Part shown: piece after piece, positions 6,301 to 61,142 of the stretch
Position numbering within the stretch: the first letter of the stretch is position 1
How the letters are laid out: each line of letters opens with the position of its first letter
Assembly (NCBI GenBank): GCA_051294905.1
Contig: CM119372.1
Location: 1,550,001 to 1,614,000, forward strand
Direction of reading: 5' to 3'
DNA from: Botryllus schlosseri
Taxonomy: Eukaryota
DNA length: 64,000 bases
Notes under the pieces: generated by a model
The model's input: only the letters and a program-made list of their open reading frames with translations
Databases searched by the model: none
What the model was told of the DNA's origin: nothing
Program-made: the position numbers and the translations under genes

Positions 6301-9300
6301 TCACCTCTGCCAAATTGATGTCGAAGAGAAATACTACAAACCTGCAAGACGGTCCGTGTCATACAGGGCATTCTTTGAGTCGATGTGGCATGTTCTGGCG
6401 TTGGTGTGATGCCGGCTCTCCATTTCAAGGAATGGCTTCGCTTGAATATGATAATGAATTTTAGACGTCATTTTAGTCAACTCACATTCACGCTTCCATT
6501 GAGAATGGTATGCACGTGATAAAGATAAATTGGATGTACCTAAAAATGGCGTATATATTTGAATCTCTCCTGAATTGTAAACGATGCCACCTGTGAATTA
6601 TTGGAAATTATCTATATAATCAATTTGAGTGAAAAAATAGCTGGTACGTTTTACAGTACTTGAAAATAGATTTTAGTACAACATCCATTGTAGTAAAAAA
6701 ATCCATTATTTTGAGTAGGAGGTTTCTGATCTATATAGGCTCTATATATATTGGTATCAATTCTTACCTATGATTGGTGCAAGAAATGCTCCGACAATGA
6801 AAAATACGTTCGTTATCTGTACGAATGGTCTGGCTGTAGCCTCGCTCCAATGTTTCAGATACATAGCTTCTATACCTGCAGTGAACAATAATAAGATCTT
6901 GTTGATCGACTACCCGGCATGCTTATTACGAAGATTCACATTCAGCATGCAATTATGCATACGGCACACGACATGTGTGTGTGACTATTTTACTGTATGC
7001 TTTTTCTTGGTGCCTGATGTAGCTTTGTGAAGGATCATCCACAATCTTGCGGTATTCAGTGACAAGACAATACTGTGCTAAGGTTGCCATACGTCCGGAA
7101 CTTGTCGGGCATGTCCGAATTTCACCGTTCAAACTGCGCCCGGGACGAAATTCCAAAATATGCATAAATGTCCGGAATTATGAAGGCTTAAAGTAGGATC
7201 ATTTTGTTCGTAAATAAATAAAACAAACGATACTAGTTTTGAGCGGATTAATGCCGCTGGAATTTTTCTTCGCGATGCGCACGATTTAGGGTCGCATTCA
7301 TTGATTTTAGTATGCGAACCACCGCCCTTGCCAAACATGCAATCAAAAATATATAAATTACCCATAATTTATTGAAATAAGTCTACTTGTATTCGCAATT
7401 ATAGGAGAACGGTATATTCCTAGAGACAGTTAAGGCCGTTAGATGCTCCGGACAAAATTACTGGCTCCAATCCTGGGGGTCGTTTGCCTTTATTCTGGGT
7501 TTCGCGAAGATGTTGAACGTAGTCAGCTTCCAAAATAGGCCCTGAGTAAGTCTGGACAGAGGTGCTGACTATGCTTCAGTAATCAGCTTATCAAATTTTG
7601 ACCTGGGCCACAGAACATTTTCAAGTTAGAAATGAAGTCGTGACCATAAAATTTCAAAAACCACTTGATGTGCAACCTGCTGGAGCGGAGTGGCATTTAG
7701 GCTCATAAATTCGTGTGACATGACAGGACTTTAGCGACCAGATGCATATAGAACCCGATAAGTTGCATCAATGACCCTATGGTGGGATCAAGATCAGTAT
7801 TTATTTGGACGGGAGAGAGTTGAAAATATGTTGCTTTGGTCCTGGTTACAAGATACAACCACATAAATGCAGCTACCTAACATTAAAGTGGCTCTTGATC
7901 CGTATCATGACCACCCCTGCCCTATACCATACAAATGTATAATCTATACTGCGTACAGTAACATATCCCATATATATTTGAACATTTATATATGAATATA
8001 TATCAATTACATATCAATATGGACTGCTTCGAAACGCGTGCAACATACGAGGTAGCATTTACTAATTGAACCATCCTTATTTGCATGCAGTCGACTTCGT
8101 GTAATTCGGACACTCTGTTTCCGCTCACTTTAAGTCATTTTAAGCGGGAAATCGATTGTGTGTTATCGTTACATGGTCATGCGTATAGGGCAGGCAGACG
8201 GTGTATCCAGGCAACTTCTTTTCCAAACTCGAAGTTTGAGAGAATTACAAATAATTTTGTTAATCAGATAAAGTAGAGTATTTCGGGGGCAGATTTATTA
8301 CTAGATTTAGTGTATTCGAATCAAACAGACGGCTTACGTTCAATATACTCCAAGCCTTCTGGCGGCTCTGACGGACCTCTAAATATGTCATAAAAATAAA
8401 AATAGATGATAGTTGTTGTTTGTTTCTATAAATAGTTGAAGTGTTTATGTATATGAATGCTAAAATGAGGGATATTAGTTATGTTTAAAGCCGTAGAAGG
8501 CCGCTTCTGAAAACCGGGAAAGAGAATTCTTGAAGACTAGGATCAAACGCATGGATCAATTCTCGTATGACAAGGATATATCGTGAGTTCTCCTGGTCAT
8601 CTACCTTTGTATATCGTCTCTGTGGAGAGTTAATCTCGACACAATTTTACTAACATCAAAATAACGGCTCATAGGTAAGTATAAATTGCAATAAGTCCAA
8701 TAATAATCGGCGTAAAATCTCCTACAAACGTGTGTATCAAGTGCTGGACTGTACGAAGAGCTATCACATAACGACATAATAGTATGTTGTAGTAATGATA
8801 TGCATTTTCAGTTTATTTCAAAGTATAGCAGTCGCCGATCTGCGTCTACCAATGCTAAAATAACCGATATAGAATCTATAGAAGTCCATGTGCATGCTTT
8901 TGAATTAGCTTGATGATGAGATCGTGAAGTGGGCAAGCTGCCTATACATTTTCGTAATAAATAGCCGACTGTAGTGTTTTTATGTGGCTCGGTACGTACT
9001 CTGAAGTTTGAAATAAGGCTCCGAATTCCACCAAGGTTGCGAACCAGTGGCCTATCTGTTCGTCTCGATTATTATTCGAATTTGCATGCATGTCACGTCA
9101 TATTTGGTGATACGACTGTTCATGTACTATTTCCTTTTGAAATATTTACTAGCTGCCGACTGTTACCCCCGACGACAGACAGCCGAAAAATTCGGGTTTA
9201 TTTTAATAGGAACATTATATTCAATGGTATATTAAAGTTCTGTGCCTAAGTGCCCATTGAAATCTAAAGCTTCACATTATTTTCAACCAGAGGATTGCCG

Positions 9301-12005: not shown

Positions 12006-13713
12006 CAGTGCTCTTCAACCTATTTCGTCATGGTACACTCTTTTAACTTTCATTCGAAACTCATACACCCCTGACCACATGACACGCTGATTCCGCAGTA
12101 AGCTTAATCCAGGGGAGTCGAACAATTTCGCTAGTCACAGACATTTTCGATTAGATTAGATATATAGCATACAGCCGTCATGGCATCTCGACGTCATAGT
12201 CACGATAAATTAGCTTCTGCAAACTTGCCGTAGGCTTGGGCTACTATATCTATGCACCAATACCGGCAGTTCAAATGCTAGGGAATGTTATATGGATTCC
12301 TTTTCTACTTGAAAAAATAATTTCGTCGATAATGCTGGTTGTTTCATATAATACTGTCAAATATTTATTCATTCTTCGCCCACGTGATCAGACTAACGAA
12401 TAGAGCTGATATAGGAGGTGTCTTCGAAAGTTTTGGGCACAGAATTAATGATGGTGCATATTCCGGTTTATTAAGTCACTTTGTTGCATGTTGCTATTTT
12501 TGACGTCCCATCAGGATTGCAGGTATTGTCGAAATCTATATTGGAATCGCCCAAACGTAGCAGAAAATAACCTTTATTGGTGAAACGCACACAATTCTGT
12601 CTGATATTTCTTTATTGGGTGCATCATTTTCCTCTGCGTTTTGATTATGTATGGTGTGGCGCAGAATACACAATTATATTAAAAAAGGAAAAATCACCTT
12701 GAATCGCACCAAGCGTGAATAAGATTTTGAAGTTTAATTAAAATCTCTCAAAGATTTAGGAACCAATTCGTTCAATTCAAATTGCAAATTGACGGCCGTC
12801 AACACACGCTAATTTAATTATGTGTAAAGGGCTCGCATAATTATTGCTAAACGGCTGCATGCGACCGTACGTACGCCTGCAGGATTCCACATATGGCCTG
12901 GTGAAATATTGATGAACAAGGCTGCAACGTATTAGGAATGCGAAATACTAATCAGGGCTCTAGGTTACCGGACCACCACCTAACACAGTGTCGCTCAAAC
13001 TCGACCCATTACCAATAAACGATGAATCAATGAGGTTAAGTATTTGCTTATGTACCACAAAAGGAATGTTATTTACAAGCTGCGTGCAGCTGATATGAAC
13101 ATTGCACTATACTGCATAGGGTTACCGTACGTCCTCTTCTAAGAGGATTTGTCCTCTTTTTTGACTTTTTTGAAAGCGTCCTCGAAGGACCCCCTTTTGT
13201 CCTCTTTTTTGAGATTTTGTCCTCTTTTTTGAAAATTTAGGTCATCTTTAGAGCAAAATGCGAGTGATATGCCGTAAATTAGCACAGCAGTGACGTTCAA
13301 ACGGTATTTTGAGCTCTGAGCAAATAGATGACTTTTCTTTCAGTCAACCACCCGGCAAGGTGGAGGAAGAAACGGTATTTCGGGCTCTGAGCGGGAAAGT
13401 TGACCTTTTTTTTTAGTCAACCGATCACAAAGTGGGAAAAGTTCACCGATTTTTGAGAATTCTTCTCCGGTTTTGCAAGTCTTAAATTTCTGAAAAGTGT
13501 CCTCTTTTAGATTTCCAAAATATGGTAAGCCTAATACTGCACAACCTGTCAACATGTTCTGAGGCATTAACATGCCTATTTATTGTGATATCTAGTCAGT
13601 GGTCCATTTCAATGCGGGTCTGGTACACCCCAGGACACCCCATCTGAGTGGTACACCCTTTTATAATTTTGGTACAGCCCAGAGTGTACGAAACATCCGG
13701 TTGAAGAGCCCTG
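12006..13713. mobile_element. Non-autonomous hAT element
   Basis: TIR CAGTGCTCTTCAACC...GGTTGAAGAGCCCTG with TSD GATTAGGC on both sides. Confidence 0.88.
13117..13533. mobile_element. hAT MITE (TAGGGTTACC family) nested in 12006-13713
   Basis: TAGGGTTACCGTA...TATGGTAAGCCTA with TSD ATACTGCA on both sides. Confidence 0.9.
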
Positions 13714-15176
13714 GATTAGGCTCCCTCTTAAGTTAGTGTAATGAGCGTATCATTTCAGTTCTCGAAAGCAATCACCTCTCATTACTCGAATCGTTGTACA
13801 CAGCCATAATCGTTACCTATGTGTGCGTATATCTCAACACCAAAATCAGGCACACAAAAATAGCGTATATACCATCAGACCTCAAACGCATTGCACTAAC
13901 CATTGTCGAGTAAAGTATCCTCTTCATGCATGCTGCAAAGTTGGAATAATATGTGATCTGCGTCTCCAACCAATCAGTCACTTCATATATCGGGTTTAGA
14001 CAGTAACTGTAACGGATGCTCATAGTCATACATACGATGAAATTAGAAGTGTCAATCATTTAATACCGCCATATGAAGTCATATTTCTAGGCTTCCGCTA
14101 TCATAGTTACAACGTACGCTATAAGAGAGTGGTAAAGGGAGTCTTTATGTCCATCCAACCGAAATACATAACAAACCGACAGCAATAATGGTGGTACAGA
14201 AAATAACCATGCTCAGTATTCGGTATCAGATAGGAATGATCGATACGATAACTAGTCTGATCATCTGATCACACCCGTATCAGTCAGATACGCTTGTCTA
14301 TGCGCAGTCTGGCTGTAACAAAACATGGTTAAAATGAATTTAAAAAATGAAATAATAAAAGGTGGTAGCAAATGTCATTCTTCCCTTCATATCAACTTTG
14401 TCTGTGCATCAATATCTTGTCAGATTCGTCAATTTGGCGCGTAAATGCTTGCTATCCACTAACTTATAATTATAATATTCCTCTCAGCATAAAGGTACTG
14501 TCGATTTTATTCCTCCAACAAATTGCTCGCTATAATTGAAATCTGAAATTGCATTGCAGCTATATGAACGGAAAAAGCATATCAATATTCTTCAGGATGT
14601 TTATGTTGTTCTATGGCAGTTTCCTTGATCATTACGCGTGCGTCGACAATCAGCACATGTGCTATCTCGGTGGTTGCGCTATCGTGGTATGGTGTGCTGC
14701 TATTACGCGTACAATTATATTATCACTTCCTTTTTATTACTTTCATGATATCTCTTCTGTTACTTTTAATTCAATGTGCATCACTCATAGTTATACATGT
14801 TCCAATAAGCCAGTGTTGCTTATACCCTTATGAGGCTCCACGCCAATGGCACAATTTCAACTGTTCAATGTTGACTTTTCCTGCAGTCCATCTTCCACAA
14901 ATCAGTCTTTCATCATACGTCGGATCTCTGCTGAGGCTTTCAAGCTCGCTGTACTTGCTAGGCTATTTAAGTTACCGCAATCGCAGTGAGGTCGGCGATG
15001 AGGAGCCCAGATAAACCACCGACTCATAGAGACTTGGTAGAGTCGAGAATCGAACCAAACACCATTGTTGTCGCGACGGTGTCGCTTATTAGCACACAAA
15101 TGCGAGGCTTCGTCTTGGTAAGTGTCGCCGCATTGTTCGGTCGAAACGCAACTAGCGTGATACCAATTGCTTAATC

Positions 15177-15477
15177 TAGGCTTACCATATTTTGGAAATC
15201 TGAAAAGAGGACACTTTTCGGAATTGTCAGACTTGCTAAACCGGAGGGGAATTCTCAAAAAATGGTAAATTCCTTCCACATTGTGGTCGATTGACTGAAG
15301 AAAAAAGTTAATCCCTCTCGCTTAGCGCCCAAAATACAGTTTTTCCCTTCACATTGTTAGGTGGTTGACTAAAATTTAATAAAAAAAGGTCAATTTCACG
15401 CCCAGCTCCCGAAATACCCGCCGGAGCGTAACTTCGGTGCTGCAAATCCTCTTAAAAGAGGACGTATGGTAACCCTA
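15177..15477. mobile_element. hAT MITE (TAGGGTTACC family)
   Basis: Reverse-oriented relative of 13117-13533, with TSD GCTTAATC/GCTTATTC. Confidence 0.85.
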
Positions 15478-16878
15478 GCTTATTCACAAATGATCATATA
15501 AATATCGTAGATGGAATTGACACTACAGAGGGACGATTGCGATTTCGAACCACGGCCTCAACGGCGTACGCCACTCCACACAGCGAACCACTACGACAAC
15601 TTGCAACCAACGATGTCCAAGACGGTGCGTCACATTACAAATCACAGGTATGAGTTTCTGTATTAACCTCCAGGGAACCGCTGACACTGGTTCGGGGAAC
15701 CACTATTGGTGCTTAGAACATCGGTAAAGAACCGCTGTAGAGGCGTCTATAGTCCGTTTGAGACGGATGGCGGGGATTCTATTTTAATCTTCGGCCATTG
15801 CACTGGCTCATATGCAATATTTTTCTGTTATAAGTTTGTAATGTTTGTCTTTAGTTCTGCTTAATGCTGATTGTAAACTGAGGATGTCCCATGTTTGATC
15901 AATTTTGGATTTTTAATAATTTTGGATGAAGAGTGTATAACAGCGCTGGCTGACTGACTTTGCAGATACGTACAGGTTACTTTTGTCAGGTAATATCTGC
16001 TCTTGAAGTTTCGGAAATATCGAGGAAGACTCAGTTCTCATTCCTCAATGTTTGACTGAAATGTGTCTGTGTAAGATATTGACTGCTTGACGAGCATGCG
16101 TTCAAATGATGAATAGGACATTGCAACAGTATTTTATGCCGTGGATATTTGTGGCGGAGAGTCGACCGGTATGATGACTTCCAGTGCAGGAAGCACGGAT
16201 TGAATATATCACGCATCATCAAATAAAATAGGCCTAATCCAAGTAGAGATGTTTTCTTTAGTACTTCTTGCGTGACACCTAGCTTTGTATCTTCAGGTAA
16301 ATTTAACTTCATTGTCGTACAAGGCAGCGGGCATGTGGTTCCACTGTCACAGGTTAGTCATGATTAGTCCATACTTATACGTGGCAATAGGACCCCTATG
16401 GTGGATTAATCATGGCAGAAGCAAAACATCGATACGAGTATTGTTAGAGCAGGCTATAAAAGTAGCCGCTTCGCCGAAATCTGCAAATTTACAATCTATT
16501 CGTTTCTGCAAGAGTAGGAAGCGATATAAAAGAATTAGGTGATGAATCAATAAACATGCTCGTTAATCTTCTTCAGACCAATTAAATTAGTTAACTTGCA
16601 TTTGGATATGACTGAGAAGAGTCACTTACTTGGTAAGTTACGAAGTCAGTGTGTAGACACACGACATATGGACACATGAAGCCTACAATGCAGCCATGGG
16701 TTATCTGGGTGCAAATGGGTTCGGTGGTGATATTTTCCCAATGCTATCTAGATTTGTCAGCAAACAATTCGACATGAGGTGAATGAGACAAAATATTAAT
16801 TCGCAAAAGTTCCCCACTCCTGTTCAATAATTATTTACTCAATATCTGACTGTCCTCCGTACAGTCAGTCATGTAGAG

Positions 16879-18451
16879 CAGTGGTTCTCAACCGCCGGTC
16901 CGCGACGACTTTTCTTCCGGTCCGCGAGGTGTATTTAGATTTTATACCTTACAATTTGAAGATGCCAGATGTTGAAGGCTTGTCCATTGGAAAAATAAAT
17001 GAAACGTCAAATTTCAAACTGATGCAGAGCTTCGTGAGGTAAATTAGGCCCGGAAACATGTTCGATTTGACTTAAAGTTCAAGCTGTCTCCGGTGACGAC
17101 ATGTGAGCGACTCGCTAACCAAGAGCTGACTCGCTAAACCGCGCGATCCGTACGATCATTCGTTCTCGATTCATTAATTTTGTGGGTGGCCACTGGCCAG
17201 GTATCGCTGTAATCAGGCGTTTTCGTGCAGGGCATTGTACTCGTAACAGGCTACGTCTGGTAGTATAGTGGGAAATCAGCAAGATAGCTCGACAAGGTGC
17301 TTCGTCCTACTCCAAAACGCTTCATCTCTGGATATTGTCAGAGATAAGACTATTATTACAATTTGCCCGGTCTGTTCATGCACGGCAGTCGGCTCAAAAT
17401 TAGCCATGTTTATCTGGGCAAGTCAATTTTACCTCGACTCAGCACTCAGCAGACACTACCGTAAAATCAAATGAATACCAGCATAAACATATTTAATTAC
17501 GAACAAAATCCTCACAATTTCATTCTCTAGTACAGGGGTGGCCAACCTGCGGCCGTAAAAGGAAATTTGCGCTGCCGTGGACACGTTTAAATTTTTACAT
17601 TAGCATGTGTCGGCGGCCGTAAACATGAAAATTGAAATTACGAATTGTCTCCCGAACTTTTGAGATATTTTATTTAATATTTAAATTTTCATCGCGCTAT
17701 ATGCGCGACTCAATGCGACTTCATTTTTTCGATTTTAGTCGTAGCGCCCGTTGCAATCTGAGCCCCGCAGTACAGATGGGAACAGCGGAGGAAAACGATG
17801 CACCCCATATATAAATAACAATCTGGAATCGTGCGCTCCTCACGAAATAGCAACAGGCTCAAAGTAACTATTAACAATTGGTCCACCCAAAGATGCATCC
17901 ATTTGCTCTAAATTTTCGAAAACACTCCCTCCATCAGCTCTACCGATGGATCTGATCACTTTGGTTGAGAAAGAATCAATATTTCACAGTAATATGTGAA
18001 ACTACGAATTTTAATGACGAAATTCATTTGTGAATCAGAAAAAATTTTCGCGCATGGCGAGACCATAACCGATCCCAGTTGTTATTCATAACATTATCAC
18101 TATGCCGGGATTTCGATGACTATAGTAAGACGACATGAAAAAGTAGATTAGTCCGTTGTTCACCAGTAATTGACATGGACTTGGACGTGCACAGTTTAAA
18201 ATGGGTATGGTGTCCAGTTAGTTTATTGCGACTATGTCCTGGATGCAGCCGTAGGCTGTATAAGTAATCGAAATGCGGTCGTGAATAGCAAAAAGGTTGG
18301 CCACCCCTGCTCTATAGTACCATATACTTGCAGAAAATCGACTGGATACATTACATTTGGTGTTGATTTCAATCTTTTAAGGTTTACCGGTCCGCCAAAT
18401 ATCTATTGAAATTTTACCGGTCCGCGAGGTGAAAAAGGTTGAGAACCACTA
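16879..18451. mobile_element. Non-autonomous hAT (Charlie-like) element
   Basis: CAGTGGTTCTCAACC...GGTTGAGAACCACTA with TSD ATGTAGAG on both sides. Confidence 0.9.
17533..18309. mobile_element. hAT MITE nested in 16879-18451
   Basis: Perfect TIR CAGGGGTGGCCAACCT...AGGTTGGCCACCCCTG. The TSD reads CTCTAGTA / CTCTA(TA)GTA. Confidence 0.85.
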
Positions 18452-19542
18452 ATGTAGAGCATATAATCAAGTGTCGTCTGAGCTCAGTGCGAGTGGAATG
18501 ATGCTGGATACGAGGACAGCATACTGCAATCTCGTAATCTCATTGGAGTAGTTGCATATTTGGTTGTTTTATGTTATTTTGTGTGAACTGTAACGGTTAG
18601 CTTAATATTGTGAATATATTATAGTCCTTTACAAATTTGATCAATTAGCTTGTGTTGTTGATGAAATGATTTGGCTTGTGATGCAAAAGACCTTTGTTGT
18701 TATGTACACCTTGATATGATTTTATTGGTAAATAATAATAAACACTTGATATAATGATAAAACGATGTTTATGTTGAATGCAGACAATGCTGGCAGGTTT
18801 TTTTGAACAAGCATCACAAACGACTTGCCTGCCAGAAGTTTCGCGAACGGCTGACGCGTGATGTCGAGTGACCTCGATACCACCTAAATAGATGGGGTGG
18901 AGCGGTACTATTCGTGAAATGTTCTAGCTGCAGTTTCAGAGGCGTATAACTGTATTCAACCGGCCAATTATCCTAGTTATGTCAATTCCATTGCTTGCGA
19001 TTAAAGGTGTCGCTAGAATGGAGCCCATTAATGGTAGTAACATAATATCACGTGTATAAGCTTGGTAATAAAGTATTCAAGTGAAAAACAAGGGCATGGA
19101 TTTTGAGGTAATCCGACCCGCGAGCCATCTGAAGGTTTGAATCCAGATTCCAGCCCGCGGCGCAAGTTGAGTTTGACACCCCTGGTGTAGAACCTACCAA
19201 AGTTCGTTTGTGAACGCTAACCTCTGAATTTCTGAGGCTCACACACAGAACGCGAACGTCAACCCCACGTTCACACCATCACTACTGATAACCCAAGTTT
19301 CGACAGGCATGAATACAAAAGGTAAGGATTTGGGTAGCTCATTTTGTTCATTCTCTCAACAGAGTCGTCTAATCAGAGTTACATCAAGAGACATGTTATT
19401 TGGGCTGCTGTTTGCGTGAGTGTGGTTTCACTTGCAAGGATGTGCTTCGTGAGTACTGAGTAAGCTATCTGTTGCATACACTTACTCTTACACACACTCA
19501 CTCAATCAAAATCACATACGGCTCGTCAGCTATATATGCCTA

Positions 19543-19882
19543 TAGGGTTAATATATTTCGGAAATCTGAAAAGAAAACACTTTTTCAAAATTTTCAGAAT
19601 TTCAATACCGGAGGAAAATCCTGAAAAAATGGTAAATTTTTTGCAATTCGTGGTCGGTTGACTAAAAGAAATCAACTTTCTGGCTCAACTCCCGAATACA
19701 GTTTTTCTTTCACATTATCAGTTGGTTGACTAAAAAAAATGTCAACTTCCGGCTCAGCTCCCGAAATAGCTGCCGGAGCATTGCTGGAGTGCTAATTTAC
19801 TGTATCTCAGTCGAATTCTGCCCTATATTTAACCGAAATTCAGAGGACAAATCCTCTTAAAAGAGGACGTATGGTAACCCTA
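19543..19882. mobile_element. hAT MITE (TAGGGTTACC family) in gene B intron 2
   Basis: Colinear with 15177-15477 and ends GAGGACGTATGGTAACCCTA. Confidence 0.82.
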
Positions 19883-19884
19883 GC

Positions 19885-21212
19885 CAGGCGCGTATCCAGA
19901 GCGCGAAAAAGGGGGGGGGTTGCGTTACGAAATTGGCTATTATGACGTCATCATTATGATCACTCGTCTACACGCCATGGCAAATATTTACGATATTGTA
20001 TAGTTTAATAATAAAAAGAGATTCGCGGTGAGTGGGAGATGTACGAATACGATACAGACATTGCCTGAAAATCGCGTTTCTTGCACGGTATGATTGAAAG
20101 AAATTCGTAATTGCTCACATTTAGTCATGAGCCAGCAAACGCCGTCCGTCTCCAAGCGCCTAGTTCCGGCCAGAGATGCGCGATTTTGTTGGGTTTTGAC
20201 GATATTATGCGCACGGTCGGTAGTATCGCAGCGGACGAACAAGCGCGGAATAAGGCGGTAGCATAAACGAGGGCGATCGCAATCGCCACATAGAGGTGTG
20301 GTGTGAACAGTACGTCGTACACAAATGTGTGCTTTTCGATGGCTTTGCTAGCCGTTCGGCTGAAAGTGTAGTACGCGCGAAGGTAATTAGACCTTAATTG
20401 CAAGTACGCAAGTCAGTCAATTAATACAGAGTACACACAGGGATAATAACTGGATCGGCAGAGAAACTTGTCAGCCGATATAATTACCGTAGGTTAACTT
20501 TACTACTAGGCCTACTCAATTCTCCCGTTCAGCAACAACACAGGCCTGTATTTGGACGCCAGCAAGCCACCTAACAATCGGGAACGTGGATTGCTAGGCT
20601 TGTATTTTGAAATGTGAATGCCAATCGAAAACCATTTCTCGCCAATAATCGCGAAGACAATGTGGATTTGAGAATAGCATTGTCGTACTGGTGCCGTCGT
20701 GTCTGCGTCTCGCTGATCAATTAACACGCCGTGCAATTCTTAATTAGGATTTCAAGGCGAGCAGGTGCAGCGAATTCGCGGGCGATGTTGATTGCCGACA
20801 ACTTCGTCTTTGCAATTACGTATCGCGTCGGCCAATTAGATTAGATTTTCCTAAAATGCGTCTCTCGTTTTAGCAAGGCGAGAGAGAAATCGAGGGAAGA
20901 AAGTTGACAACGTCAGCAACTACCGCTGAAATGTAGCTGAACAAGCGCAGAATTCGTATGGAATTAGCGAAATATAATGACCTATTTTATCCTTTCGACT
21001 ACTAATTCGACGCATGATTCCAAGATTTGGTATGGGTTTTGGTCCCCTTAAATAACATTAACACGTCATATTCGCCTTCTCATACGTAAAAACGAATATG
21101 TTAAACTAGTAAATTAGCAAATATTAGAGGCTATATTTTACATCAATTTTTAGGATTTTGAAAAAGGGGAGGTTCCGACCCCCTAAACCCCCCCCCCCTG
21201 GATACGCCACTG
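19885..21212. mobile_element. Non-autonomous hAT element
   Basis: CAGGCGCGTATCCAG...CTGGATACGCCACTG with TSD ACCCTAGC (19877-19884, 21213-21220). Confidence 0.88.
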
Positions 21213-50871: not shown

Positions 50872-53800
50872 CAAATACCATATTATTGTACTGATGCACT
50901 ACGACTATAGTATACCACGCAGTGATATTTCCTCAGGGTGAATTTATTGTAGCGTGTGAATCAAGCTATCAATCAATCAATAAATAAAAGAAAATATAAA
51001 TGACTGCTGCGTTGTTACACTACTCCAAGTCATTTCGACACTTTCCCATATCTTTTCATTGCATCGCAATCTTGAGGCGCTTTAAAATGATGAAATTATA
51101 ATAAAATGAACCGGGGGAAAAATTTCGGGTTTCGCAGTACATAAGCCGGATATAGTTCCTAGGAGATATATCATGGATCTGCGTGTAGGGTTGGGACTTC
51201 GGGAACAAATTTGAAATCCCGGGATCGGGATTTCCCGGGATTTGCGCTTCTCAATCCCGGGATTAGTAAAGTAGTAAAATACACATACAAGCTACACACA
51301 CAACATATATTACTTGTAGTGTTGACGAAAAAACATGCTCCCGTGAATACGAATGAAATCCAGCGACCGAAGGCCACCCGGATAATGAGTGTTTAAATTC
51401 ATGTACCGCCTGTTTCGTGTAGAAAATGATTCGTCAAATGTGATCGAAAAACATCCAATGCTGCGTTTCATTGCCATAAGCTTTCTTCCGCACACTTACG
51501 GATTTATTTGCTGTGCTCGACCACCAAGTCATGAGCCCGTATGCGACATCTTGACAAGTCACAGCCATAAGCCTTGAAGGCCCGACGAATTTGCTCACTT
51601 TGGGTAATTGAAGAAATGTTGACCCGTTCACAGCAGTTAACTTGTTAAGAAATTCATCGAGGAGAGGCTTATGAGTAGTGTTATCATCTGGGTTATAGAC
51701 CGCCCCTCAGGCTATTTAGAATGTAAACACTCTCATAATATAAGTAACCTCGGACTATGGCCGGTCCATGCTTCCGAGAAATAAATAACATTAATTATAC
51801 GTTAGATGATACTTTCCTTAGATATTCTATTATGTGTATTTAGGACCAATATTCTAATATGTGTATTTGGGACTAATGCGACTACTTCGAAAACGCGTAC
51901 TGAGCAGTTTTTGGGAATATGAATTCTGGCTTATTCTTATGTGAATTTAGAACTTTGTATTTTCGCGGATCAATAATAAATTAATGTTCATTTATTTCGA
52001 AAAAAGAGCATAATACATCAGTAATAGCGTTAACGTCACAATCGAATAATACTCATCAACGTTGAACTATTGCCGCGGTTTTATGTTGATTACGCTTTTC
52101 GTATCTTCTAACACTTTACTCAGTCTCATAGAAATAGCATTGTATAGTGTACGATTTTATTTCGAAAAAAGAGCATATCAATGATATCGTTGATCGTTAT
52201 TGCGTTATTACGCGCGGGAATGTTTTTTTATGCTTATACAACTCAACGAATACCCATCGGCCTGCTTACTACATTTTAAAGATTCTCTCCGCTATTGTGT
52301 ATACAAGAATATACTTCTCTTAGTAAGCAATTTCTCGTGAATTCCGAAGCACATTGACGTGTGTTAACTTCTGTATTAGGTTATAATATCATTTTCATGT
52401 CTGATAATGTTACTTGTCAAGGTGATACAAACGTAAGCTCAAACTACTTTAAAATTTAAAGTCTTACTGAATTTTATCTAAAACTGAAACTGTCAAGTAC
52501 CGATAAAGCACTCTAAACTCTAGTCACTTTTTACGTGGAGGGAGTACATAGCGAAGTACTTGTACACTTTGGAGTACTCAAGTATAGGTTTGGCCTGATT
52601 GCGCTATACTGAATGAAGTGATTAACTATTTACACTGCATCTACTTCTATTTCAGAGTTTTACGGTTTTCGAGCGAACAATACCTTCAATACATACTTTT
52701 TAACTCGCTCGGAAATCATCACTTCTTGTACTTTACTAGAAATTTACTGCTACTAAATGTTGAAATGTACTGTTTTCAGTGGTCCTGATGAGTGCTGCTA
52801 GTTTCCTCTATATCCGACGACGCATTTTCGCGCCGCAGAATGACTTATCGCAATAAAAATAACAAAAATACTTCGAGAATTTGCGAACTCTCACTGCGCA
52901 ATATTTAAGTTTTACGAAGTACCCTTCAAAGTGACCCTACATCTTGGATATTATCCAAAACCCCATAAAATTTCGCTTCGAGCGAGGAATCCTTTAAAAT
53001 AAGGTAGAAGCAGTCATTTCCGAGTAAGTAAAACGTTAGTACTCTAGGTCTATTTCTGTTTTATACTGTAGCTATCATGAAGTTGATGTACTCCAATAAG
53101 GACTTGAGAGTATTTGGTGCATGTAGGCAAAAAACCTACTTGGGTATTCTCAAGAAGTACGTGTACTTCTATACTTAACAACTCTGAATGTTAGCGCGGT
53201 TTGTGGCATTTGTATGCGATCAAAGTTTGCGTGCTTCTCGCGTACCTTATGATAGTAGTTTTCCTCTTCTATCTACTTTACAAGATTCAGTGTAGAAGTT
53301 TAGTGAAAGTGTAAGAGTTTAGCAAAAGCAGTTTTTGATGATAGCACTTGTCAAAGTGATACAAACGTAACCTCAAGCTACTTTAAAATATAAAGTCCTA
53401 AAAACCGCTAAGTATAGAAGTGTAAATAATCTACAAACATAACCACCTATATTAGTTACTTTTTAATCCCTAATTGTACTTGTATTCCAGCAAAATTACG
53501 AATCGTTGAGTATCGAGCGATAGCCTGTATCATACTTGCGGAAAATAGGGATTAAGTACTCGAGTGTCAAATTAGAGTAAATTGAGTAAACTTTAGAGGT
53601 TATTAGTGATTCTGCTGGAGTTTATATGAAGGGAAGTCCTGATAAAACCTTGATTATTTCAGAAAAGAATAGAGGGCTTCTGTCGATATTTTGATAGTCT
53701 CCGTCGTACTGTCGGATGTCATGAAATTGTATACATACCATCTAGTGCTACGCGAAATTTCCAGGTTGGTACTCAATGGTTCTGTTAGTAACTATATGGA

Positions 53801-54196
53801 ATGTATGGGAGTCGAATTGGAGCGTAAAGTATGCTCCTATGGCATAGAGCCCTTCGAAATGAGTCCACATACCTCGTAAAATTCCACTCCAAGCGCTGCG
53901 GCTCAGCTCAAGCGAACAAGTATTTCGTACTTTAGGATTCAAATCATCTTTCTTATGATAAATTAACATAGGGAGAATTAATCAGAAAATTTTGTAGAGT
54001 ACCGTAGGCATCGATACATTGAGTGAAATGGGTTCCCTTATCTTAAATTGAAACTGACAGAATAAATCGAAACAATTTGCAGATTCCTTCAAGACATAGC
54101 TCAGGCTGAGATCATAGCCTAATAACGAGGGCTTCGAGTGGGATGTTATAGGAAGCAAGACGAATCATTATAAAGTGTTGAAACTTAATTACATCT

Positions 54197-56330
54197 GTAA
54201 TTCCGTCATTAAAGTTGACTACGCATAGGTACGTGCTACGCTCCCGCAAACAGATTCACGTGAAATCGGTATAGAACTGCGTTAGTTTTAAAGGTGTTCC
54301 ATCATGAAATGTGTGATGAAATTTGATATGTTCCATTGTCATAATGTCCTACACCTGTGAACCAATTTTCAAGTTGCGCATTCAATGTATAGCATGGTCA
54401 TTTCGTTATTAAAGTTGTTCAGGAATAGGTACATGCTACTCTCCCGCAAAAGTCGCTGTCGAATTGCGCTAGTTTTAAAGTTGTTCAATCATGAAATGCG
54501 TAACCGAATTTGACATGGTGCATTGTGTTACAACTGCGTACCGAGTTTCAAGGTGGGGAGTCGATTATCAACATGGTAATTTCGTTATTAAAGTTGACTA
54601 TGTATACTGTATAGCTACGTGCTACGCTACGGACAAATAGATTTAGTCAAAAGTCGGTATAGAACTGCGTTGGTTTTAAAGGTGTTACATCATGAAATGT
54701 CTGACGAAATTTGGTATGGTGTATATTCATTATGTCCTACAACTGCATGCGTACCAAGTTTCAGGGTGGGGATTTGATTATAAGCATGGTACTTCCGTTA
54801 TTGAAGCTTACTATGTATAGGTACGTGCTACGCTACCGAAAAACAGATTTACGCAAAAGTCTGTAGAGAACTGCGTTAGTTTTAAAGGTGTTACATCATG
54901 AAAAATCGACGGATATTGTGTGTTCTGGTGTGTGTGTGTGTGTCTGTGTGTGTTCCGGTTCGTGCTTTAGCCTCCCACAGAGTCAATATGTTGAAATTAG
55001 CAACCTCCATGACTTTGGTAACTGCTTGGTACACGGATAATGGTTGAATTTATGTCCCCGTCGCGCTAACAAATCCGGGTTACTTGTGAGTTTTCTCATA
55101 CATGTTTACTATATTGTGTCACTCTTTATTGGTCAATACATATCCCACCGTTCAGTTTGAAATCGGAAACCCGAGAAAGTATTAACCGGATCCGGATATC
55201 AACTCTGAATCGACAAACCAATGAACAATATTCAAACATGTTACACCCTCGTGTTTCCATGAAAATAACAAGACATTACACATCCAGTATACTTCACGAT
55301 TGTTCATAGATACCAAGTATTCGCGTAAAGGAGGTGTGTGACATTACATACATCATGGATAACATCATGGCCGGCACTACAAGCATCATGGATTACAAAT
55401 TCATGTTCTGAAGTCTCATACATGCACCGACTCTGTACATTCAATGTGGGGGTAGCTGACTTGGAGACAGAAAAACACACATATTTGACCGTAACATGGT
55501 CTTAGTATGAACCGTCATGCATTCGACTTGCGGAAAAATGTGTCGCACACTATTTCACCGAGATTATAACCCTTTCACGGTTCACAACTTGATATATCAA
55601 CTTCACAGGGTAGTTCGGATTCTCAGGTAGACTTGAATCGTGATCCGGATCTCGGAATATAGTAAAATCGGGGTATGTAGTTTAATTACTCACTCACTAC
55701 TCTATATGTTGGTGGTGGTCATACCCTGCAAACTTTTTTTGGTGTGAACGTAGTGTTTCACCTTACATCAGTTGGTTCAATGTATGTACCGGGTTGTGAA
55801 AACTGTCGCTGTTTTGACTATGTGTCACAATCAATACTAAATACGAGAATTCGTTACTCGTCGAAACGCCGCAGTCAGACATCGTTAACAGCGATTCCGT
55901 GTATGGCAATCTTGAGTTACCGTTATTAAAGTTGAGTATGCATAGGTACGTGCTACGCTCTCGCAAAGGTCGGTATGGAACTACGTTAGTTTAAAAGTTG
56001 TTCAATCATGAAATGCGTAACAAATTAGACATGGTGCATTGTCATAATGTCTTACAACTGCGTACCGAGTTTCAAGGTGGGGAGTCGATTATTAATATGG
56101 TAATTCCGTTATTAAAGTTGACGATGTATAGGTACGTGCTACGCTACGGAAAAACAGATTTAGCCAAAAGTCCGTATAGAACTGCGTTGGTTTTAAAGGT
56201 GTTACATCATGGAATGCCTGATGAAATTTGGTATGGTGCATTGTTATTATGTCCTACAACTGCGTACCAACGTTCAAGGTGAGAATTTAATGTTTAACAT
56301 GCTAATTCTGTTACTAAAATTGACTATGTA
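54197..56330 (+). repeat. About 180-213-bp satellite-like tandem repeat (two blocks, 54197-54902 and about 55915-56330)
   Basis: The monomer core GTAATTYCGTTATTAAAGTTGAC...GTGCTACGCT...GTTTTAAAG...CATGAAAT recurs at 54197, 54397, 54576, 54789, about 55915, 56100 and 56302. Confidence 0.9.
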
Positions 56331-57467
56331 TCGGTAAAAACGTCGTGTAAAGGTAAAGTACTTGTACATTTCGTAGTGCTCAAGTATAAGTTTTTAACCT
56401 GTTAACTTGACAAAACTTTCAAGTACTACTTAAAGTGTTATAAAATATGAAAATGTGTACAAGTAGAATTATTATTATGTCATGAATAAGTAGTTTACAA
56501 ATTCATACGATTTTTCTTGTTGCGTTCCGGGGATTTGCATAAGTTTCATCGATATCGTACAATGCGTTTACGCGGTCCAGAATGACTTATGGCGATGAAA
56601 AAATAGCAAAAATGGTCTATTGAGCATTGAGCACGGTTCAAGAACTATGATATTCCTGTACTTGCACTTCGAAATGGTTTACTGACCGTCGGTTCATTTA
56701 GATACCTAAGCTACTTTAAAATTAGTACTCGAGTATTTGCCTCAATTATACTATTGGGTAGTTATAGCCAGAGGGATTCGATGGTGACGTACTAGTATAA
56801 TGCACATTTTGGAGAGATTAAGTAAAGCAATGATCTCAGATAAATCCGTTAAATTAAGGCAGAAGTAGCAATTTACGAAGAAAGTTAGCATTCTAGGCCT
56901 ATAATTCTGTTTAATACGGAAAATGTCATGAAGTTGAAGCGAACGGAAATCATAAACACTTTAGTATTAGGTCCATATACGTGATAAGCTACTTTAGTAT
57001 TCTGATGGTTTGGGATAAAATGTAATTTTTCGTGCTTTTTTATTTTTTAATAAAATCAGTATTCATTTTACAGAAACATCGTGTGAAGGTAAAGTACTTG
57101 TACATTTCGAAGTACTCAAGTATAAGTTCTGGTCAGCTAAATTTCGATGTCATAGAAATACCACAAACTGTGCAACTTGTACTTCTTCAGAGTACTCAAT
57201 TAGGTTTTTAGCTATATGCAACAAATACTTTCGGGTGTTTTTGATATTGGACTGCTTCAACTCCATGGTAATTATAGTATTAAGCAGAAATGAACCTACA
57301 ATACGAACGTTTTACTTACTCGGAAATGACTACTTTTACGTTAATTTATAAAACTCAAGTAAAGCTCACGAAATCCATAGTGTAAACGTCTCTAATGCGC
57401 TGAAAAAGGCAGAAAAAGTACTCAATACGCTACATTTGAATCTAAAAATATTAATTCTCGTAAAACG

Positions 57468-57897
57468 TAGTGGGTGTGGGATTCGAACCTATATGTGAAC
57501 ACTTGTTCATTGGAACTTAAATCCAACGCCAAAAAGCTATACTTTACAAAAATTTTGGAGTACTGACTTTTTTAGGTAAATTCTGTTACGCGCTTAGTTA
57601 CTAACTCTGAAAGCCAGCAAAGTTTGTGGTATTCGATCAATATGGAAATTCGTGCACTTTGCGTTTAGGTTGTGTTGTAAACATGAGTAACTTATAACAC
57701 TTGTTCATTGAAACTCAAGTCCAACGCCTTAACCGCTCGCTCAAGCCAGTTCCGTTGCTACGATATCTGAGAAATCTATTAATTTAGGGTAGAAATAACT
57801 ATTTCCAAGTAAGTTTCACGAAGTCTCGATACGCTATATTTAATCTAAAAATTAATATTAATCCCCATAAAACGTACTGGGTGTGGGGTTCGAAGCC
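57468..57897 (-). pseudogene. Three degenerate tRNA-Leu(TAA)-like fragments (57468-57530, 57696-57750, 57875-57897)
   Basis: The - strand reads GGCGTTGGATTTAAGTTCCAATGAACAAGTGTTC...GGTTCGAATCCCAC, CGAGCGGTTAAGGCGTTGGACTTGAG... and TTCGAACCCCACACCCAGTA followed by a T4 run. These match the D arm, anticodon arm, long variable arm and T arm of eukaryotic tRNA-Leu(UAA). None is complete. Confidence 0.72.
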
Positions 57898-58834
57898 TAG
57901 AATAATAAGCGGATCGTGATTGAAAATAGAAGGAGGATCACTGGATTAACGTTTATGGAATACTCCGCAATGTAAAATTAGTATATACTGCACAAAATCC
58001 AGAGTGTAAGAGTCTTTACTGCATCGGAATAGTGTAGTTTTCCATCTACTTTACAAAATTTATACGATTTTTCTTGCTACGTTCCGGGATAAAATGTAAT
58101 TTTTCGCACTTTTTAATTTTTAATAAAATTAGTATCCATTATACAAAAACGACGTGTAAAGGTAAAGTACGAATACAAGTACAAGTAGAGATTTCAAAGT
58201 AAGTAAGTGGTTATGTTCGTAGACTAACCCCACTTCTACGTAACGATTTTTCAGTAAGTAGTCATGTTTCTAGGCTACTTTTACTTCTATTTAACGAGTT
58301 TTCATACAAACCTGCTTTCTTTAAAATGACATTCAAGTAGGCTACTTACTTTAGATTATTAAAAGTATAGTGATTGAAAATAGATCACTGGATTATAGTT
58401 TACAGAAAACTCCACAATTCTATGTGACGTCCTTGCATGCCAACAACCTTCGAACTATTCGCCACCTCATAAACACTTGAGTAGGCCTACATTTGATGCG
58501 TGTGGGGAAAAACCTAGTCAAATTTTCATGTGCATTTAGTTTCCAGCTCTGAAAGCAAGCTTGGTCTATGATCAATAGCAACTTTTGCGTAAACTCCGTT
58601 CTATTTCACTTCATACCTATACAATGTAGATAGTCTATTCGAATAATTCGATGTATAATTGAACTTTCCTCTGCATGATCATTAGGGCTTCTATTTTTTG
58701 TTGCAGGGCAACTTTGTTGTAGCCGAAAGCGGTATTATCTAGCAACAAGGTTTAAATGACTCGCCTCCGGCGTTTATTGACAGTATTACCCGTATTCTCG
58801 TCATGCAAAAATTATGCATGTATTAGTATGAAGC

Positions 58835-59170
58835 TCAGATGCAGCAAAGTGTGTCAGACTGGCTGTAAAATGACGCGAAGCAGCGACTCTAATTTCTCGG
58901 CTTATAGCAAACAACGACGCTGAAATTCTACTTCAGACGCAGCAAAGTGGGTGAGACTGCCTGTAAAAATTGCGCGAAGGTACATTTCTCGGCTTATAAC
59001 AAATAACGACGCTGAAATTCTACTTCAGATGCAGAAAAGTTAATGCGTTTGGCTATATAAATTGCGCGAAGGTGCATTTTCCGGCTTATAGCGAATAACG
59101 ACGCTGAAATTCTACTTCAGATACAGCAAATGCAGCAAAGTCTGCGCGAATAGCCGCATAAATTGCGAAA
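58835..59170 (+). repeat. 92-bp tandem repeat, about 3.5 copies, near the right TIR of the Polinton-like element
   Basis: AACGACGCTGAAATTCTACTTCAGA occurs at 58913, 59005 and 59097. Confidence 0.88.
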
Positions 59171-61142
59171 AGATGATCGCAGCGTCGGATGGCAGCAAAG
59201 CGGTGTACCTCGAAACATCAACCGATCTGGAGGATTTCAGCACGCGAATCGACGCAATAACGATCAACGATATCATTGATATGCTCTTTTTTCGAAATAA
59301 AATCGTACACTATACAATGCTATTTCTATGAGACTGAGTAAAGTGTTAGAAGATACGAAAAGCGTAATCAACATAAAACCGCGGCAATAGTTCAACGTTG
59401 ATGAGTATTATTCGATTGTGACGTTAACGCTATTACTGATGTATTATGCTCTTTTTTCGAAATAAATGAACATTAATTTATTATTGATCCGCGAAAATAC
59501 AAAGTTCTAAATTCACATAAGAATAAGCCAGAATTCATATTCCCAAAAACTGCTCAGTACGCGTTTTCGAAGTAGTCGCATTAGTCCCAAATACACATAT
59601 TAGAATATTGGTCCTAAATACACATAATAGAATATCTAAGGAAAGTATCATCTAACGTATAATTAATGTTATTTATTTCTCGGAAGCATGGACCGGCCAT
59701 AGTCCGAGGTTACTTATATTATGAGAGTGTTTACATTCTAAATAGCCTGAGGGGCGGTCTATAACCCAGATGATAACACTACTCTTATGCGATTTATTTT
59801 ATAGGAATCGATCTTCCTCATCTTTATTTTTAGCTGATCTTTCTTTGACGTGTCCGATTGAATCATGCATGATTTCATTACTATCATTTGTACGGACCTT
59901 AAATGCGTTATTAGTCCCTTTGTGCTAGACACTGAAGCTTTCAAAACGTCTTGACAAAAGTTGCATTTGGCTTTTTAGGTAGATTTTAAAAACAAACAGT
60001 TTCGCTAAACATGAGTTTTCTCTTTGCATTGACATCTTCGAAATTCGCCATTATTCGACCTCTATTTCACCCCCACAGCACCGTCCTAGAGACTTTTCGA
60101 TACTCAATTACATTGCTACGATTCGTAGACTACGACGAAAGTGATTGTGTAGTTCATTGTTATGCCATAGCTGGCTTTAATATCAAATAATTGTGAATTG
60201 TTTTAGACAATCAGCAGAGTTTGTGACATTGCTTTATTACCAAAATAAGAGATATGGCGCTACGTAAGCCTTGGAAAATGCTCTTTACAAATCCCGGGAT
60301 TTCATTGGGAGTAATCCCGGGATCGGGATTTCCCGGGGTCCCAACGCTATCTGCGTGCCGAGGCTCATATAACTGGATTTACAGTTGGTATGGAAGCAAT
60401 GGAATATAATATAGTTTTTCTTGTTTGATTAAAATGTCCCATTCCTGATTCCGTGCTATGAATAAAGCATCACAGAATATCGAAGATCGAGATTAAGAAT
60501 AACAGGATATAGAATAGAAGCGGGGTATCTCAATCATTAATTCAAACCGATATCTCATTTCTTAATTGCGAATCGATATGCGTTTTTCCTCAATTCATAC
60601 TATACACGACTGAACTATCATACTGATCCGACATTTCCGAATCCATATTAAGTGCGAAAAGATTACGGTATGGCGCGATGAAAACATCGTAATTTCGAAA
60701 CGTAGTGCACTTGTCGAGAACTATTGTATCGTCTTTTTTCGCGACCTTCTTTTCGCCAACATACAGTTGCACCGTAGAAAATGTTGCACTGTACCACACT
60801 ATACCAATTTGCTGCGTTTAACCTTTTAGAAAGGTACCACCAATGACTGTTTAGCTCTGCATGTGTGGTGCGGTTTTGTGAAACTGAGTAGCTCACTGGC
60901 TTGTAGAAGTTCTCCGTTTAGCCTTGCTACAAACATTAACATTTGTTTGCGTAAACCGGGCTCGTGAAACAGCTCTAGGTCACTCTGAGTGATCTACAGG
61001 CCTATATATAACTGATAGTTATATGTACCCTCGAGTAATGTTTGAATATATATCGTTTGATGTTACAGCCATTTGATAGCCAAATCATTGGAACAAAATA
61101 TTCTTATACATGAACGGGAGGAAATATAGTCTATAAGTGACG

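Follow-up and report, generated by a model that had tools for sequence, protein, structure and literature searches.

In a window of 64,000 nucleotides from Botryllus schlosseri (assembly GCA_051294905.1, contig CM119372.1, positions 1,550,001 to 1,614,000), to whose plus strand all coordinates refer unless stated otherwise, we analyzed a gene-less element of 8110 bp (51674-59783) which has ends of the Polinton/Maverick type and is inserted with the hexamer CTTATG on both flanks. The element belongs to a family of satellites having a palindromic form, a conserved centre, 6-bp target-site duplications (TSDs) and the same variable sequence, in the following named barcode, at both ends. The barcode alleles belong to a pool shared with a family of autonomous Polintons, family C, in whose copies the barcode co-varies with segments of their protein-primed polymerase B (pPolB). 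We consider it probable (about 0.7) that the window element is a member of the satellite family which has lost most of one arm, and that the polymerase of a helper Polinton reads the barcode as a lock-and-key origin of replication. The novel aspect is a modular barcode which appears to be matched to the helper polymerase; statistically, the match is strong in family C and was partly repeated in family D. The initial annotation of this DNA had overlooked both the variable barcode and its coupling to the polymerase.

Aligning the two inverted arms of the window element (51674-52205 and 59252-59783, 532 bp each) gave neither mismatches nor indels. The left terminus AGTAGT (51674-51679) is mirrored by ACTACT at the right one (59778-59783, AGTAGT on the minus strand), and the TSD copies occupy positions 51668-51673 and 59784-59789. 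These features had been correctly described before, and the earlier statement that no open reading frame (ORF) exceeds about 95 amino acids was essentially right: the longest stop-to-stop frames comprise 110, 95 and 82 residues. Given a longest frame of 110 residues, the element contains no gene for pPolB, a retroviral-like integrase, a capsid protein, an ATPase or a protease, and is thus no autonomous Polinton/Maverick. Its ends and terminal inverted repeats (TIRs) are those of a non-autonomous Polinton, as had been proposed; AGTAGT is common to every Polinton family examined in this genome (A-E). Contigs from all four sequencing runs contained the target repeat without interruption and with a single CTTATG, as expected of a true TSD. 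Note, however, that the target is a high-copy repeat, whose uninterrupted copies may be paralogues and so do not demonstrate polymorphism at the locus. No contig from these runs spans the element, both flanks of which are repeats. Nevertheless, the element is neither a product of chance nor a one-off assembly artefact, because its end motif recurs at 79 places and because 24 of 29 related elements possess an exact 6-bp TSD.

These related elements, named sisters in the following, were identified by means of the ends. The 532-bp TIR as query gave at least 56 genomic matches, with 40 out of 1183 candidates being scored; among those scored, the full length was matched only at the window element's own ends, whereas all others spanned approximately positions 27-322 to 27-421. 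The end pattern AGTAGT-N17-25-CCGCCCCTC occurred 81 times at 79 distinct places (reversed-pattern control: 2), and a second end type, AGTAGT-N20-27-CCAATCCCA, occurred 194 times (control: 1), 100 of these matches being listed. The expectation that many TIR-related copies exist was thus confirmed. Thirty further elements that are poor in genes were inspected (20 with ends of the CCGCCCCTC-type and 10 with ends of the CCAATCCCA-type), and in none of them was there an ORF for polymerase, replication or integration functions or one of capsid size. If the palindromic share is defined as the fraction of bases for which an inverted counterpart of ≥95% identity exists, 19 of the 30 sisters reached at least 87%, seven were between 58% and 79%, and four did not exceed 26%. 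Accordingly, 26 are largely palindromic, with lengths of 12-27 kb, most of them around a conserved loop of approximately 40 nt; the full centre motif TTCCCGCGC-loop-GCGCGGGAA is present in 20. In the fully palindromic sisters, the distance from terminus to centre is 6.8-8.1 kb. The identity between arms is mostly 99-99.9%, and 95-98% in one older copy. For 29 sisters both flanks were readable: besides the 24 exact TSDs, there were two with a difference of one base and three with larger differences. In 26 of 29 sisters the two ends bore identical barcodes; in the other three, the barcodes differed by one or two bases.

A comparison with these sisters indicates how the window copy may have arisen. 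Behind its left 532 bp lie five junction letters, TATTA (52206-52210), which echo the neighbouring GTTATT, and then CGCGCGGGAATG, the sequence with which an arm starts at the palindrome centre of the sisters. It opens a module (52211-52466) that flanks the central loop to the left and right in palindromic sisters; the loop and the left copy of this module are absent from the window copy, which is only 13% palindromic, retains half of the centre motif, and is thus no whole-length palindrome itself. The following 7573 bp (52211-59783, no strand assigned) form one complete arm from centre motif to terminus, a mosaic of non-coding modules shared by the family. Sequences from 58 sister loci cover 7040 of the 7046 interior bases at ≥90% identity, and outside the element nothing in the 64-kb window matches its modules; the head, the centre-flanking module and the interior are thus all shared with the family. 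As the stump adjoins CGCGCGGGAATG and as the remaining 7573 bp fit the centre-to-end distance of the sisters, the window copy likely combines a complete arm with a stump of 532 bp, and the apparent TIR (51674-52205) would be the remnant of a deleted arm. The source was probably a palindrome of about 15.2 kb which lost approximately 7 kb including the loop, and TATTA may be a scar resembling those of end joining. In consequence, three earlier proposals had to be revised: the interior is not decayed but made of modules found in sisters, host DNA serving as stuffer is not what it contains, and a 532-bp TIR is not the design of the family, whose typical member is a palindrome over its whole length. 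The perfection of the TIRs is real but is no special sign, as zero mismatches in 532 bp are expected with a probability of 0.02-0.59 at the arm divergences seen in sisters; for the same reason, the window copy appears to be young, yet not exceptionally so.

The helper Polintons were reached via a weak ATPase match (PF04665), which led to a degraded Polinton whose pPolB piece then served as query. This gave at least 118 matches in the genome (117 of 261 candidates scored), many of them with open frames of about 1290-1310 residues. Several pPolB families can be distinguished, labelled A-E here, and all ends examined carry AGTAGT. The helpers are 17-18 kb long and encode, besides a pPolB of about 1290 residues, ORFs in an ATPase/integrase/capsid/protease layout; the predicted autonomous partners do exist in this genome. 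Family C is the one that shares cis sequences with the window element: a piece of 190 bp (59175-59364, minus strand) has 99.5% identity to part of the left end of a Polinton of this family, with little else in common, and the variable 24-mer of the satellites is present at the ends of family C, too. The one family-C copy checked has a TIR of about 125 bp and a 6-bp TSD. When 37 distinct satellite barcodes were compared with 28 helper barcodes, the satellite allele also occurred among the helpers in 28 of 37 cases for positions 7-11, in 24 for positions 14-18, and in 32 for positions 22-26. Because of the shared 190-bp piece and the shared end code, family C is likely the helper of the window element. 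The TSDs and the lack of genes suggest that this partner mobilizes the element in trans.

The terminal bases 7-30 constitute a combinatorial barcode, which an element carries in identical form at either end. In the window element, positions 7-26 read GTTAT CATCTGGGTT ATAGA (51680-51699), and the identical sequence is found at the right end (59758-59777, minus strand); its modules are also present in sisters and in helpers of family C. In order to determine which DNA varies together with the barcode, pairwise barcode distances were compared with pairwise distances of 60-bp windows over 5.3 kb, considering the best window and 1000 label permutations. For family C, 31 copies were recovered and three duplicate barcodes were dropped, leaving 28 copies. 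Among these, bases 12-19 tracked residues 294-334 of pPolB, approximately (r = 0.66, p = 0.001, the floor of the test), bases 22-26 tracked residues 164-204 (r = 0.62, p = 0.001, again the floor), and bases 27-30 tracked residues 184-214 (r = 0.47, p = 0.002). For the intervening stretch of about 3 kb, the best r-values were only 0.28, 0.14 and 0.30, respectively, and the modules 12-19 and 22-26 were independent of each other (r = -0.04). No barcode module correlated with the C-terminus of the polymerase (20 copies) or with the next 7.1 kb (22 copies). Bases 7-11 exhibit 15 alleles among the 28 helper barcodes; the idea that the integrase or the product of some other gene reads them was dropped, as neither of the last two comparisons gave a signal. 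A barcode copied from an internal template was likewise rejected, because two helper copies contained no internal 9-mer run.

Both coupled segments are located in the N-terminal part of pPolB. The first one contains a zinc finger, CxxC-x3-F-x5-L-x2-H-x4-C, which starts at residue 303 of the family-C protein; the second one directly precedes a D-x-x-C motif with the catalytic cysteine of the vOTU domain and is named pre-OTU segment here. The variability of family-C pPolB peaks at residues 165-215 and 295-330, approximately. In 20 copies, nonsynonymous polymorphism (pN) was 0.14-0.15 in the two segments and 0.01-0.05 elsewhere. An AlphaFold model based on 18 sequences has a beta-beta-alpha arrangement at the finger, and OTU domains were the best Foldseek matches (best E-value 2.6e-3); the model supports a TP-vOTU order of the predicted domains. 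The order TP-vOTU-polymerase is given in PMC11161782. An alignment-based search for homologues of pPolB resulted in 10 proteins and a metagenome scan in two distant loci; a search with the single sequence returned nothing.

In the 27 family-C copies in which the finger was readable, helix positions 6, -1, and 2 paired best with bases 14, 16, and 17. Arginine at position 6 occurred with G14 in 12 of 12 copies and lysine with T14 in 10 of 10 (Fisher's exact test, p = 7e-7); glutamine occurred with C14 in two of two. A spacing of n, n+2 and n+3 for helix positions 6, -1 and 2 is the geometry of classical C2H2 fingers. For family D, which shows about 38% identity to C here, 22 loci were considered and four lacking a D-type terminus were dropped. 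Among the remaining 18 copies, the pre-OTU segment was coupled to bases 22-25 with r = 0.84 (p = 0.001), and the adjacent windows were coupled to bases 26-31 with r = 0.53 (p = 0.005); glutamate or leucine at helix position -1 went with G18 or C18, respectively, in all 18 copies. The co-variation of barcode and initiator thus seems to go beyond linkage for both modules in family C and for the pre-OTU module in family D. In all families examined, the barcode directly precedes what we take to be a CCAAT or GC-box-like motif.

From these findings, the following course of events can be proposed. The helper pPolB would bind bases 12-19, approximately, by means of the C2HC zinc finger behind its vOTU domain and bases 22-30 by means of its pre-OTU segment, and protein-primed synthesis would then begin at AGTAGT. 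The displaced strand of a palindromic satellite would snap back, forming a hairpin of about 7-8 kb with one origin. Copying through the loop of approximately 40 nt would generate a duplex of 14-17 kb having near-identical arms and identical barcodes, which the helper integrase would insert with a 6-bp TSD. Recombination among co-replicating genomes would shuffle barcode and polymerase modules, and only matched pairs would persist. The likely driver is competition between helpers combined with the escape from satellites, which would keep re-acquiring barcodes. The window copy would have lost about 7 kb of its left arm together with the loop, either before or after insertion.

Several observations speak against this proposal or restrict it. 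A full match over 24 bases to a sampled helper was found for only two of the 37 satellite barcodes, and the window element's own barcode matches those of the helpers only module by module. Bases 7-11 are equally variable but have no partner (p = 0.11) in the approximately 14 kb scanned. As the copies are related, permutation makes the p-values look better than they are, and it is the intervening DNA that serves as the real control. For the finger of family D, the signal (r = 0.62, p = 0.013) is inseparable from lineage structure, given values of up to 0.58 for the intervening DNA, and the order of helix positions -1 and 2 is reversed. Helix position 3 is asparagine in 25 of 27 family-C copies although base 15 varies, which is why the finger code is only partly canonical. 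The sole copy combining G14 with a residue other than arginine is L161, whose barcodes differ between its ends. The mean pLDDT score (predicted local distance difference test) of the pPolB model is 67, and Foldseek found no match at E ≤ 0.001. The ratio of nonsynonymous to synonymous polymorphism (pN/pS; 20 copies) is 0.53 and 0.31 in the two modules and 0.06-0.19 in the rest; it is thus elevated but below 1, which together with the raised pN would fit a shuffling of old alleles better than a simple sweep. Finally, co-variation is not contact: the binding of the barcode, its role in replication and the hairpin intermediate are predictions.

These restrictions have to be weighed against those of other explanations. 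Perfect TIRs and a perfect TSD are what one expects of an ordinary non-autonomous Polinton built around 532-bp TIRs and filled with decayed or host-derived stuffer, and short inverted ends exist in four of the 30 sisters, too. Such a construction is nevertheless very improbable, as nearly the complete interior recurs in sister modules, as the stump joins exactly at the conserved centre of the palindrome, and as the full 532-bp match is unique to the window copy among the candidates scored. It is hardly credible that the palindromes were created artificially, by folding back during long-read sequencing or assembly: one double palindrome of 26.8 kb does contain a gap of 100 N, and the lack of spanning contigs would agree with an artefact, but matching TSDs, differences of 0.1-4% between arms along with nested insertions, and an identical centre motif at independent loci do not.

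With respect to the coupling, barcode and polymerase might co-vary within the same satellite family due to the shared ancestry of a few founder lineages, i.e. without any functional recognition. The copies are indeed not independent, the finger signal of family D overlaps with lineage structure, and pN/pS stays below 1. We regard this explanation as quite improbable, since two modules only three bases apart are independent and each of them tracks its own segment 4.0-4.4 kb away while the DNA in between does not; moreover, the register of residues and bases suits a zinc finger, and the pre-OTU coupling recurs in family D. Alternatively, finger and pre-OTU segment might read the barcode for a purpose other than replication, such as end protection, packaging, assembly of the pre-integration complex or autoregulation of a terminal promoter. 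The motif following the barcode would be in line with such a purpose. This possibility is unlikely, though less so than mere ancestry: the reader is part of a TP-vOTU-polymerase polypeptide, the barcode lies at a site where the origins of protein-primed replication are located, and the regions of ATPase, integrase and capsid show no coupling.

If the lock-and-key reading holds, the co-variation names the residues and bases by which Polintons recognize their ends and start replication. The genome offers dozens of natural cognate and non-cognate pairs of ends and polymerases, making the question directly testable with isolated domains. On a more general level, and with odds only slightly above even, Polintons may bear a combinatorial code for self and non-self, in which a modular end barcode is read by separately shuffled polymerase modules. 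A single family would then fall into many types of replication specificity within one host genome and be engaged in an arms race with a dedicated class of hairpin satellites of palindromic form, the window element being a relic of this class. This suggests that virus-like transposons of animals have incompatibility types similar to those of plasmids as well as satellite parasites of their own. The palindromic family is likely a fossil record of hairpin replication intermediates.

Some of these features resemble known systems. The element kalilo is reportedly a case in which a protein-primed linear plasmid has a hairpin or palindromic derivative, and snap-back genomes are known among defective viral genomes. 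Like these, the satellites are gene-poor fold-back molecules with a protein-primed end that would require a helper polymerase; however, kalilo-type derivatives and snap-back genomes are sporadic and extrachromosomal, whereas the satellites are dispersed and integrated and possess a conserved centre and non-coding modules of their own. With classical C2H2 fingers, the pPolB finger shares the pattern CxxC-x3-F-x5-L-x2-H, the predicted beta-beta-alpha fold, the 6/-1/2 register and the pairing of Arg6 with G. It differs in being a single C2HC finger inside a polymerase and in its near-fixed position 3, where the expected base varies.

The window element is similar to Polintons/Mavericks, also described as polintoviruses and adintoviruses (PMC8097293, PMC8502044, PMC11161782 and PMC6431247), in its AGTAGT ends and 6-bp TSDs; the helpers resemble them in their length of 17-18 kb, their pPolB and their ORF layout. 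For vertebrate Mavericks, PMC8097293 lists TIRs of 46-1447 bp; in contrast, the window element codes for nothing and its family is palindromic over the whole length. A word search in the accessible parts of these four articles gave no mention of a zinc finger in pPolB, of palindromic satellites or of a variable end code, and palindromic Polinton satellites, a variable end code and a finger reading it are likewise undescribed in those of PMC11071296 and PMC10748475. The same is true for the listings and abstract beginnings obtained from the full-text literature, a body which leaves out supplements, Repbase/Dfam and most subscription papers. The closest conceptual precedent is found in geminiviruses, where origin iterons co-vary with an N-terminal iteron-related domain of Rep and set replication specificity, and which carry satellites too (PMC10653810). 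According to the same source, geminiviruses differ by rolling-circle replication of single-stranded DNA, an HUH-type Rep and a variation that occurs mainly between species or strains. Here, the elements are linear and presumably protein-primed, and at least two modules, one of them a zinc finger, are shuffled independently within one family and genome.

Further observations concern the families of helpers. In family C, the right ends (L101:7200-9700, L110:1000-3000) contain tandem units of about 480-700 bp, each with an internal AGTAGT, and pieces of these units occur in satellites. At C4:11.82-11.87 Mb (L130, L159, L161), four ends of family C are clustered, each of them with another barcode; an inverted pPolB pair at this place had been considered a palindromic autonomous element, which was rejected because the ends are separate and the barcodes differ. 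The finger of L161 fits the barcode of a neighbour in this cluster, which suggests local recombination. In family B, a terminus was recovered for one of nine newly fetched stretches; its ends (L097, L098, L169) vary before the CCAAT motif. Finger helices vary in family A (L092, L095) and in family B. Distant pPolBs from other sources (P0007-P0009 clusters: P0012-P0043) possess two to four C2H2 fingers in their N-terminal part; within a cluster, the helix positions of the fingers and the pre-OTU loop vary from member to member. The variation of finger helices in unrelated pPolBs suggests that the code system is widespread.

Among the satellites, the loops of approximately 40 nt (e.g. L044, about 7370-7415; L148; L154) are strand-asymmetric, rich in TTAGG-like, telomere-like units and variable between copies; the loop sequence was not found in two helper copies. 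The double palindrome mentioned above (C10:21033776-21060588, L048-L050) is a palindrome of palindromes with two centres and the gap mid-way, and is either a concatemer or an assembly error. The palindromic satellites also appear to have spread anti-apoptotic genes (Bcl-2, IAP) around the genome. An ORF of the Bcl-2 family (PF00452) is present in both arms of some satellites (L035:3523-4104, L037, L048-L050, L077-L078) and has about 80% DNA identity to a gene of Polinton family B. Both arms of another one contain an ORF of 211 residues (L144:1092-1727, L145:6210-6845), which equals the BIR/IAP ORF of family C (PF00653, L118) in length, the only property compared. Nested insertions comprise a family-B pPolB within one 53-kb end pair (C11:2510280-2563859) and, within two other satellites (L033-L034; L042), ORFs which we take to be retroelement-like. 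The accessory genes described for adintoviruses include Bcl-2 and IAP ones (PMC8502044).

The window element itself contains several further modules. The head (51700-52094) corresponds to element positions 27-421 of CCGCCCCTC-type sisters, with 92-98% identity among copies, and is followed by a piece of the family-C left end (52093-52205, 99% identity), inside which the left arm stops. Two clusters of repeat units of about 200 bp (54197-56336) represent a family-wide module of varying copy number, and a 92-bp unit is repeated 2.6 times in tandem at 58892-59130. Elsewhere in the window, positions 13112-19887 harbour related short inverted and direct repeats, for example 15443-15479 and 19848-19884, which are identical over 37 nt; they suggest another small family of TIR elements.

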